Shown here in pieces: positions 24,700-25,290 of a DNA stretch of 64,000 bases. Within the stretch, counting starts at the first letter, position 1. Each line of letters opens with the position of its first letter. This stretch comes from Klebsiella phage vB_Kpn_K7_rec17. Position numbers and translations under genes: made by a program. The notes beneath the pieces are model-generated. The model had not been told where the DNA came from, searched no databases, and saw only the letters and a program-made list of their open reading frames with translations. Where the stretch lies: sequence record PQ569716.1. The stretch is one strand, 5' to 3'.

Positions 24700-25290
24700 C
24701 AGTGAGACTTCGGTCAGGGCCATCAAACGTCCGAGAAGCTGTAATTTCTGATGGGGATGATCCCAGATTCGTAAGAATACCCCATCCTTACCTTCACAGG
24801 TTTTAGCGCAATGCTATGTAAAAGTCTAGGGAATCTGGGATGGGGCTGAGAGAAATCTCACACAACCATCCTACTCCATGCCGTCCAGGAGTATAAATGG
24901 CGAATCTAGGGACTTAGACGGTCATTGCCCTAGCGCGTTGATGCCGTGCCGGAATCGGTATACGGGGCTTCCTAAAGGGCGTAAGCAGAACATCCACTCT
25001 GCATAAGATACCCGAAAACGAGGCTGAGATAAATGGTCTATCTTGTGAAGGTTCAATCCCTTCCGGGGTTAGCGTGTAGTGGGGCTAATCAATCCCCACG
25101 TTAAACGTTCAAGTTAAGATTTGTTAGTTGCAGAAACGGGGAGGCTATCAACCTTCAGTCCCTGAAAGCTCTCAGCGCTTGGAACTCTTTCGTCCGTAAG
25201 GAATAGATCCCCTTTCGCTTTGACTCGCAAACTTCAAACCAAGTGTAACTAACAGCTGCAAGCCTGGATTACCGCTCTTCGGAGCGGATA
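24700..25290 (+). ncRNA. candidate structured non-coding RNA (~590 nt) inside the tRNA cluster
   Basis: No ORF with an RBS (the 66-aa ORF-track call overlaps the tRNAs); GC-rich hairpins throughout; ends in a CCGCTCTTCGGAGCGG UUCG-type hairpin just before the next promoter. Confidence 0.35.

Follow-up and report, generated by a model that had tools for sequence, protein, structure and literature searches.

What occupies the ~610 nucleotides (nt) between the end of a tRNA-Val gene and the next strong promoter in Klebsiella phage vB_Kpn_K7_rec17 (sequence record PQ569716.1) is the question raised by this locus. The DNA analysed, referred to here as the window, is 64,000 nt long and contains a cluster of 25 tRNA genes detected by ARAGORN, including an Ile/Met/Val trio that ends at 24694; the region under study occupies window positions 24695-25304. 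An initial annotation described it as non-coding and as lying between tRNA-Val and the next promoter, and this was borne out by ARAGORN, a promoter scan and the list of open reading frames (ORFs). By blastn the region matches T5-like Klebsiella phages of the genus Sugarlandvirus (Demerecviridae) at 100% identity, and 67 records span at least 80% of it. Comparison with relatives points to a likely answer, namely that the region is a mosaic of small, independently folding + strand RNAs that makes up the untranslated 3' end of a tRNA operon. Its blocks are described below as modules A to D and a 3' domain; for module C, module D and the 3' domain ~20 distinct sequences each were compared. One of them, module D, is as judged from its sequence a true homologue of the RNA1 of phage T5 in a new genomic position.

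The evidence for module D began with similarity and was extended by covariation. Window positions 24947-25063 match T5 RNA1 with 76% identity over 117 nt (blastn, E 1e-20), and this is the sole segment kept across ~500 T5-like phages of Salmonella, Escherichia and Klebsiella. The module is 81-93% identical to its copies in Epseptimavirus. In the T5 record AY543070 the matching segment falls inside rna1 (30501-30644), which is annotated as a 'tRNA-like stable RNA with unknown functions'. A structure of 39 pairs was read from, and then tested on, an alignment of 22 distinct sequences. The consensus has a terminal stem of 10 base pairs (bp), interrupted by two U-U mismatches, and a D stem of 3 bp whose loop is GAAUYGGUAKA. 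A 5-bp stem in the anticodon position closes an insertion of ~48 nt, inside which are an inner stem of 3-4 bp and a distal hairpin of 5-6 bp. The variable arm has 6 bp and the loop AAUGGUC, and the T arm reads GAAGG-UUCRANY-CCUUC. In the window these elements fall as follows.

24936-25074, + strand: module D, homologue of T5 RNA1, class-II-tRNA-like, identified by blastn, covariation and covariance model R1
24936-24946 (CGUUGAUGCCG) with 25064-25074 (CGGGGUUAGCG), + strand: terminal stem, with one G-G mismatch and three G-U pairs
24949-24951 with 24963-24965, + strand: D arm, from the alignment
24967-24971 with 25020-25024, + strand: 5-bp 'anticodon stem', closing the 48-nt insertion
24990-24997, + strand: conserved loop ACAUCCAC of the distal hairpin of the insertion
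25026-25044, + strand: long variable arm, from the alignment
25047-25063, + strand: T arm, from the alignment

With this fold 93.8% of the alignment cells were paired and 9 pairs had changed on both sides, with 61 cells showing such changes, whereas slid controls, in which the 3' partners were shifted by 1-3 columns, gave 38-52% paired cells and 0-1 both-sides pairs. Terminal-stem variants in two metagenome loci (L068 and L069) replace G-U by A-U or C-G by U-G, which is consistent with pairing. Covariance model R1 scored the window copy at 143.5 bits (E 3e-40), a value inflated by the presence of the window sequence in the training alignment. Its next-best matches were the phage's own tRNA-Leu(UAG) at 37 bits and tRNA-Ser(GCU) at 31 bits, followed by T5 tRNA-Leu and tRNA-Tyr. 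These cross-matches to tRNA-Leu, tRNA-Ser and tRNA-Tyr range from 22 to 37 bits, the insertion is skipped in all of them, and they constitute independent evidence for a class II tRNA scaffold.

Module D is nonetheless a tRNA mimic and not a tRNA. The D arm, T arm, variable arm and terminal stem of a cloverleaf are all conserved, and the acceptor, D, variable and T arms align with those of class II tRNAs (Leu, Ser, Tyr), the T arm of tRNA-Ser(GCU) being 89% identical to that of module D. It departs from these tRNAs in having the ~48-nt insertion where the 7-nt anticodon loop would be, in a mismatched terminal stem of 10-11 bp and in the lack of an encoded CCA: what comes after the terminal stem is UGUAG in the window and UAUAUCAAU in T5, in contrast to the ACCA at the ends of the neighbouring tRNAs. 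The module was not called by ARAGORN and the Rfam tRNA model gave no match to it at E<=10. Descent of RNA1 from one particular phage tRNA was considered and rejected, as global alignments to tRNA-Leu, tRNA-Ser and tRNA-Tyr were similar in the T arm only and no parent could be named. A search of 185,579 cellular genomes (596 Gb) for the invariant 18-mer of RNA1 returned 8 matches, all without RNA1 context, where ~17 would be expected by chance.

T5 RNA1 and module D share the same helices, the loops GAAUYGGUA (D), ACAUCCAC, AAUGGUC and UUCRANY (T), and the strand of the tRNAs. They differ in the sequence of the terminal stem, in length (144 nt in T5 and 139 nt in the window) and in position. 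In T5, as in Epseptimavirus, RNA1 lies between the tRNA-Ser genes and RNAI-RNAIII-tRNA-His, whereas module D has module C on its 5' side and the 3' domain on its 3' side. In the window the Ser-His gap contains an RNAI homologue, and covariance model R1 detected no RNA1 there. Module D is therefore not found at the T5 position, although a mobile module need not strictly keep its synteny.

Module C, immediately 5' of module D, was found by blastn in ~215 phage records, including Epseptimavirus phages of Salmonella and E. coli and the Tequintavirus OSYSP.

24873-24935, + strand: module C, 63 nt, two hairpins with mutually pairing loops, identified by blastn and covariation
24873-24877 with 24888-24892, + strand: stem 1, tested on the alignment
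24906-24912 with 24927-24933, + strand: stem 2, tested on the alignment
24880-24885 (GCCGUC) with 24917-24922 (GACGGU), + strand: loop-loop helix of 6 bp

The two hairpins and the loop-loop helix were tested on an alignment of 19 sequences, 18 of them distinct. Paired cells amounted to 96.9% and 6 pairs had changed on both sides, compared with 31-41% and at most 1 both-sides pair in slid controls. Two of the six covarying pairs belong to the loop-loop helix (CG/UA and GC/AU), so that GCCGUC/GACGGU of the Klebsiella phages becomes GCUAUC/GAUAGC in Epseptimavirus. Within the module (24888-24915) there is also an AGGAG followed, after a 6-nt spacer, by AUG, with the AGGAG sequestered in stem 1. 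In the window the AUG begins a frame of 6 codons and in most relatives the reading is ATG-TAG, the stop coming after 0-5 further codons, and the AGGAG-N6-AUG arrangement is regarded as coincidental. A scan of IMG/VR with a 16-mer from module C yielded mostly look-alikes made of a ribosome-binding site and an ATG. Module C and the 3' domain had no match in Rfam (E<=10) and no similarity to the annotated T5 RNAs (blastn), and appear to be undescribed families of a kind that is already known, the stable RNAs of tRNA clusters.

The 3' domain (25075-25294) contains the following elements.

25079-25099, + strand: hairpin E1, GUGGGG-CUAAUCAAU-CCCCAC, folding z -2.0
25121-25255, + strand: core of the 3' domain, enclosed by a 12-bp long-range helix (25121-25132 with 25244-25255)
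25140-25156, + strand: CUAUCAA hairpin in the core, GGAGG-CUAUCAA-CCUUC
25193-25202, + strand: GNRA hairpin in the variable interior, UCC-GUAA-GGA, in the other version UUC-GAAA-GAA
25258-25294, + strand: conserved GCAAGCCUGG and terminal hairpin, GGAUUA-CCGCUC-UUCG-GAGCGG-A-UAAUUC

RNAalifold, run on nine distinct sequences, identified 7 compensatory pairs in the long-range helix and a compensatory change of the GNRA hairpin, UCC/GGA to UUC/GAA, between the two versions. A survey of 19 distinct loci from Sugarlandvirus, Epseptimavirus, Tequintavirus OSYSP and Eos-like phages found an equivalent helix in all 19, although the sequences that form it are unrelated (UUGUUAGUUGCA/UGUAACUAACAG; UUGUUAAUUGCA/UGCAAUUAACAG; GCUUAUUUAUCUAAUC/GAUUAGAUAAUAAGC; GCUUUUCUUCUUAAUC/GAUUAAGAGAAAAGC). 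The duplex energies of most of them were 2.5-4 standard deviations below shuffles. The CYAUCAA loop is constant on four different stems, and GCAAGCCUG follows the helix. At the site of E1 a different hairpin is found in Sealy, L007, L035 and Eos, with the base GUGG/CCAC kept. The most constant part is GCAAGCCUGG with the terminal hairpin, which retains 95-97% identity even in Eos, L007 and L035 despite differing upstream sequence. That a UUCG-type hairpin closes the region had been proposed at the outset and was confirmed, with CCGCCC/GGGCGG as a compensatory variant in L064 and the metagenome locus L067 and GCCCUCC-UUCG-GGAGGGC in KKP_3831. Its G+C-rich stem can be lengthened to 12 bp, with a single bulge. 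It lacks a following U tract, the tail being AAAAAUUCAUUU, and a scan of 23700-25700 found no terminator-like site; it is probably a 3'-end-protecting or boundary hairpin.

Some features of the 3' end would also fit a reading in which the 3' part (~25075-25294) is mainly a cis-acting operon-boundary element, such as a 3' stabiliser, a processing site or a terminator-insulator, and not a trans-acting RNA. It always ends the non-coding stretch, just 5' of the next promoter or gene, its best conserved piece is the one at the very end, and the hairpin abuts the A/T-rich upstream part of a promoter cassette. However, the U tract is missing and no terminator was called, while in Epseptimavirus GCAAGCCUG is succeeded by a different structure and no promoter. 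Furthermore, a simple boundary hairpin has no need of a covarying long-range helix of 12-15 bp or of a CYAUCAA loop. As an account of the whole 3' part this is considered unlikely; for the last 30-40 nt it is compatible with the mosaic of small RNAs.

The 5' half of the region is less constant and contains three further blocks.

24695-24745, + strand: module A, 51 nt, closed by UUACAG/CUGUAA, with hairpins GAC-UUCG-GUC and GGGC...GUCC
24746-24834, + strand: module B, a block of Klebsiella phages only
24835-24870, + strand: inserted hairpin, 36 nt, GGAUGG ... UGAGA-GAAA-UCUCA ... CCAUCC, with a GNRA tetraloop

Module A occurs in Sugarlandvirus phages, in Eos and in Salmonella phage UTK0009 (91% identity). 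RNAalifold drew 14 pairs in it, 1 of them compensatory, and the folding z was -1.0, so that structural support for this module is weak. Module B is absent from Eos and has other sequence in its place in Epseptimavirus. RNAalifold found in it one-sided (G-U) changes and no compensatory pair, and its 91-nt version folded no better than shuffles (z +0.3). The 36-nt hairpin is absent from 9 of the 11 other loci aligned and was found only in some Sugarlandvirus phages, being carried by GlastoCabaret (L066) and the metagenome loci L067-L069. In GlastoCabaret GGGUG/CACCC stands for GGAUG/CAUCC, a single compensatory change of A-U to G-C, and this hairpin is more weakly supported than the modules downstream. 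No fold is claimed for module A, module B or the 36-nt hairpin. The comparison across T5-like tRNA regions called for in the initial annotation thus upheld module C, module D and the 3' domain, and lent little or nothing to A and B.

Alignments with Sugarlandvirus, Epseptimavirus, Eos and metagenome loci revealed that independent blocks appear and vanish among relatives. RNA1 is missing from the otherwise near-identical loci of the related phages L007, L035 and L067, and in LmqsRe28-2, IME260, Eos and one metagenomic contig an unrelated 38-nt hairpin stands in its place. Short collinear similarities between this hairpin, 'X' (L007, L035, Eos, L067), and RNA1 (CCGGCAAUCGG, GGUUCCU, GCAUCCAC) prompted the idea that it was a decayed RNA1, which was abandoned when covariance model R1 found nothing there. 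Two diverged versions of the 3' domain interior occur; its length ranges from ~30 to 110 nt, and four loci have lost most of it. Epseptimavirus has modules A and C and a 3' domain after tRNA-Ile/Met, and RNA1 ~2 kb away beside RNAI. Such gain, loss and swapping of blocks argues against one single large fold.

Two other observations were made in the course of these alignments. In Klebsiella phage PWKp9S (L006, 10-311) an inserted block of ~300 nt separates tRNA-Ile from tRNA-Met, which are 5 nt apart in the window. Fragments 93-99% identical to the 3' part of the region (matches H10, H134 and H137) were found in the jumbo Klebsiella phages vB_Kpn_AM_K4 (288 kb) and vB_Kpn_AM_K6 (261 kb); these are unexpected for genomes that are not T5-like and could reflect chimeric or mixed assemblies, or real transfer.

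The variability of the region would also fit evolutionary debris, that is, decayed tRNA genes and recombination scars that are transcribed without a function of their own. The region is mosaic and differs among relatives, RNA1 resembles a class II tRNA with a disrupted anticodon loop, module B lacks covariation, the T5 tRNA region can be deleted and the thermodynamic z-scores are weak. Against this, compensatory changes preserve the helices of C, D and the 3' domain across genera at 20-25% divergence, and the loops ACAUCCAC, AAUGGUC and CYAUCAA remain constant while their stems change. The core of RNA1 is also kept in ~500 genomes, and pseudogenes would not keep such pairing. Debris is accordingly an improbable explanation of the region.

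Folding energy has no discriminating power here. The whole stretch gave a z-score of -1.6 on the + strand and -1.1 on the - strand, individual modules ranged from -2.0 to +0.4, and base composition was unremarkable (46-50% G+C). Any claim that the structures are more than chance must consequently be founded on conservation and covariation and not on stability. The GC-rich stems noted in the initial annotation comprised four hairpins, all of which occur in the sequence. Two of them pair as drawn, namely E1 and CCGCUC-UUCG-GAGCGG (within 25266-25294), and two are better paired otherwise: CCGGAAUCGG is the D-arm region of the tRNA-like fold and GGGGAUGAUCCC competes with GAUGGGG/CCCCAUC.

It had further been suggested that the region resembles the ornate RNAs of the ROOL/GOLLD type. 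On that reading it would be one large RNA of ~600 nt that folds as a unit and is freed from the tRNA transcript. ROOL and GOLLD are found in phages next to tRNAs. The overall length of the whole gap is similar to theirs, it is phage-borne and beside tRNAs, it has many stems, and the minimum free energy fold of the full stretch draws some long-range pairs. However, the Rfam scan that had been proposed as a check offered no support: tRNA families were the only ones to reach the gathering score in the window, and between 24600 and 25400 tRNA-Val was the sole match at E<=10. Group I introns, tmRNA, RNase P, 6S, Y-RNA-like families and known ribozymes are likewise excluded as far as Rfam models can see. 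The z-score of only -1.6 for the whole region also counts against it. ROOL and GOLLD each have one conserved multi-domain fold, whereas here close relatives drop or swap RNA1, module B, the 36-nt hairpin and the 3' interior and leave other blocks intact. Every supported module closes on itself, and one block is homologous to a discrete 144-nt T5 RNA in a different context. The ornate-RNA proposal is already largely refuted and is given very little credence.

As regards coding potential, the earlier statement that there is no credible ORF, and that the sole call overlaps a tRNA, held up, since no ORF in 24695-25304 is longer than 44 amino acids (aa) except one of 66 aa that starts with TTG and overlaps tRNA-Val. 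Three are annotated elsewhere as hypothetical proteins of 34, 42 and 38 aa (24702-24806, +; 24878-25006, +; 25114-25230, -). Such 34-42-aa 'hypothetical proteins' are carried here by PQ569718, ON637170, OR896843 and other GenBank records, and ON637170 calls their neighbours 'putative tail protein'. A PHROG search with the three gave no meaningful match, the single one (E 0.006) covering 19 residues that overlap module C. The flanking genes do have family matches, the next beginning at 25365 (PHROG 4551, E 4e-35), and the absence of one within the region was counted against coding. The annotated ORFs straddle module boundaries that vary among relatives and look like gene-caller artefacts over RNA genes. 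That the region encodes micro-proteins is hardly tenable, for although the three ORFs exist and are annotated in PQ569718 and other records, and AGGAG in module C is followed 6 nt on by ATG, the only PHROG match is not a real one and that ATG opens no more than the very short frames described above. The 42-aa ORF runs across module C and RNA1, two blocks that other genera have kilobases from each other, and the block with the minus-strand ORF is replaced or deleted in other variants. Reading frames are also disregarded by the block swaps and by the indels, which measure 36, 38 and ~100 nt.

The strand of the RNAs can be read from their wobble pairs. U-G or G-U pairs, which would be A-C on the other strand, occur at columns 45/98 of RNA1 in 22/22 sequences and at columns 10/52 of module C in 12/18. 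These invariant or frequent G-U pairs place the RNAs on the + strand, the same as the tRNAs. The features that bound the proposed transcript are as follows.

22493-22521, + strand: upstream promoter-like site, TTGCTA-17-TATAAT with TG, a copy of repeat family D5 and the putative start of the tRNA operon
24458-24694, + strand: tRNA-Ile(GAU), tRNA-Met(CAU) and tRNA-Val(UAC), from ARAGORN and Rfam tRNA matches, directly 5' of the region
25305-25333, + strand: downstream promoter and boundary of the region, TTGCTA-17-TATAAT with TG, sigma-70-type, 10/12 matches, repeat family D5
22247-22307, 22469-22529, 25281-25341, 26239-26299 and 28159-28219: promoter cassettes, family D5

The sites at 22493-22521 and 25305-25333 are the two strongest promoter matches flanking the region. 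Between 22532 and 25305 the + strand has no promoter or terminator match, which makes co-transcription with tRNA-Ala through tRNA-Val likely; co-transcription with the tRNAs, as anticipated in the initial annotation, remains the simplest reading of the sequence. In relatives the homologous non-coding region is preceded by the Ile-Met-Val trio or by Ile-Met alone. Within 19500-31000 the tRNA region is split into short operons by the five ~60-nt cassettes (GAAAAATTCAnTTGCTAAAnGCT...TATAAT). Another block, shared between 25340-25367 and 28215-28242, takes in the leader and ribosome-binding site of each following gene.

If the region is indeed a mosaic of small RNAs, host RNA polymerase would transcribe from ~22493 across the tRNAs into it, and host tRNA-processing nucleases (RNase P at the bases of tRNA-like stems, and endo- and exonucleases) would cut between modules. 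Shielded by the closed stems and the terminal hairpin, the resulting pieces could then accumulate as stable RNAs in the manner annotated for T5 RNA1, RNAI, RNAIII and RNA2H. T5 RNA1 as annotated starts one base in from the foot of the terminal stem derived here and ends directly against the start of RNAI, a layout that fits RNase P-type processing. Release as a stable RNA, another of the early suggestions, thus has a precedent by analogy for 24936-25074 in T5 RNA1, though not in the form of ROOL/GOLLD. The RNAs would be accessory rather than essential, and T5-like phages would swap the modules by recombination. T5 deletion mutants lacking 29191-32442, which covers RNA1, RNAI, RNAIII and RNA2H, are viable, and the deletions have been called non-essential (PMC11464382).

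With respect to function, the preferred proposal is mimicry of tRNA by RNA1-type RNAs, which might offer a tRNA elbow and class II body to a host or phage tRNA-binding factor without decoding. This role is favoured because RNA1 keeps the elbow and the class II body and has no anticodon. The synthetases for tRNA-Leu and tRNA-Ser ignore the anticodon.

Several points weigh against the mosaic of small RNAs as set out here. The number of sequences is small and they are closely related in blocks, and several of the 'compensatory' counts represent a handful of events or whole-block replacements and not many independent substitutions. Covariation lends modules A and B little or no support, and the z-scores from minimum free energy folding are weak throughout. 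The terminal stem of the Klebsiella RNA1, with its G-G mismatch and three G-U pairs, is misaligned in alignment A3, and since RNA1 in the window is off the T5 position, synteny gives no support to orthology. The stable-RNA status of T5 RNA1 comes from the annotation of the record, behind which reportedly stands the work of Ksenzenko et al. in 1982, and literature searches for expression data on T5-like small RNAs gave nothing usable. Homology, covariation-backed folds, modular presence and absence and the lack of coding signal are direct observations, whereas transcription, processing, stability and function of the region are inferred, and the tRNA-mimic function of RNA1 is speculation.

It is also clear from the T5 record that RNA1 is one of several. 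AY543070 annotates six further RNAs in the tRNA region, RNAI, RNAIII, RNA2H, RNAIV, RNA2 and RNA3, as stable or tRNA-like. They are comparable in kind to the modules described here, each being a 70-170-nt RNA of the tRNA gene region closed by a terminal helix. T5 differs from the other genera in having no non-coding region after tRNA-Ile/Met that bears module C and the 3' domain, and blastn of the six RNAs against modules A, B and C and the 3' domain gave short words at chance level. A 12-nt identity between T5 RNAIV and 25223-25234 (CTCGCAAACTTC), noticed by eye, was about what chance would produce in the search space and was dropped.

Elsewhere in the tRNA region of the window an RNAI homologue was located at 23391-23491, between tRNA-Ser(GCU) and tRNA-His and syntenic with T5, with a terminal helix GGCCC.../...GGGCC followed by ACCA as in a tRNA 3' end. 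The rest of the Ser-His gap (to 23639) may hold an RNAIII-like RNA, the alignment there being poor. An RNA2H homologue, missed by blastn, lies at ~22542-22730 between the promoter at 22493-22521 and tRNA-Ala, in the same relative place as in T5, and its terminal helix (AAUUAAUC.G/C.GAUUAAUU) differs from that of T5 (UAUUAGCUCG/CGAGCUAAUA) in a compensatory manner. The occurrence of both at T5-syntenic places indicates that the phage carries a T5-type set of RNAs. T-arm-like GGTTCGAnTCC with a CCA-like end was seen at 23142-23162, 27905-27940, 29098-29133 and 29940-29975, none of them called by ARAGORN; these may be further tRNA-like RNAs or degenerate tRNAs, comparable to T5 RNA2 and RNA3. ARAGORN listed no tRNA-Gly in the window, and T5 has one.

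Outside the T5-like phages the nearest parallel, drawn by analogy only, may be RNAC and RNAD of T4, the species 1 and 2 RNAs of the T4 tRNA cluster. They are encoded beside the T4 tRNA genes. Both are small stable phage RNAs whose function is still unknown (PMC9697503).

The kind of element found here is therefore already known from the stable RNAs of the T5 and T4 tRNA clusters, which are dispensable in the laboratory, and no new class is proposed. Module C (~200 sequenced phages) and the 3' domain (several genera) are backed by covariation and have no Rfam family, and could be curated as new families. The 'hypothetical protein' annotation across the region in several public records is probably wrong. 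More broadly, T5-like phages, including Klebsiella Sugarlandvirus isolates studied for therapy, spend several hundred bases of a compact genome on folded RNAs, one of which, the tRNA-like RNA1, has gone ~40 years without a known function. A doubtful but more specific idea is that the modules are swappable RNA decoys, in which RNA1-type mimics, and possibly module C and the CYAUCAA domain, titrate host factors directed at tRNA. If this were so, the targets would be tRNA-cleaving defence nucleases, or synthetases or modification enzymes that recognise class II tRNAs independently of the anticodon, and the cassettes would be exchanged by recombination among T5-like phages to match the defences of their hosts. 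T5 tRNAs neutralise tRNA-cleaving defence systems (PMC11464382), tRNA-Lys and tRNA-Tyr of T5 having been reported to counter nucleases of this kind, and an anticodon-less tRNA mimic would be a natural candidate in such assays.

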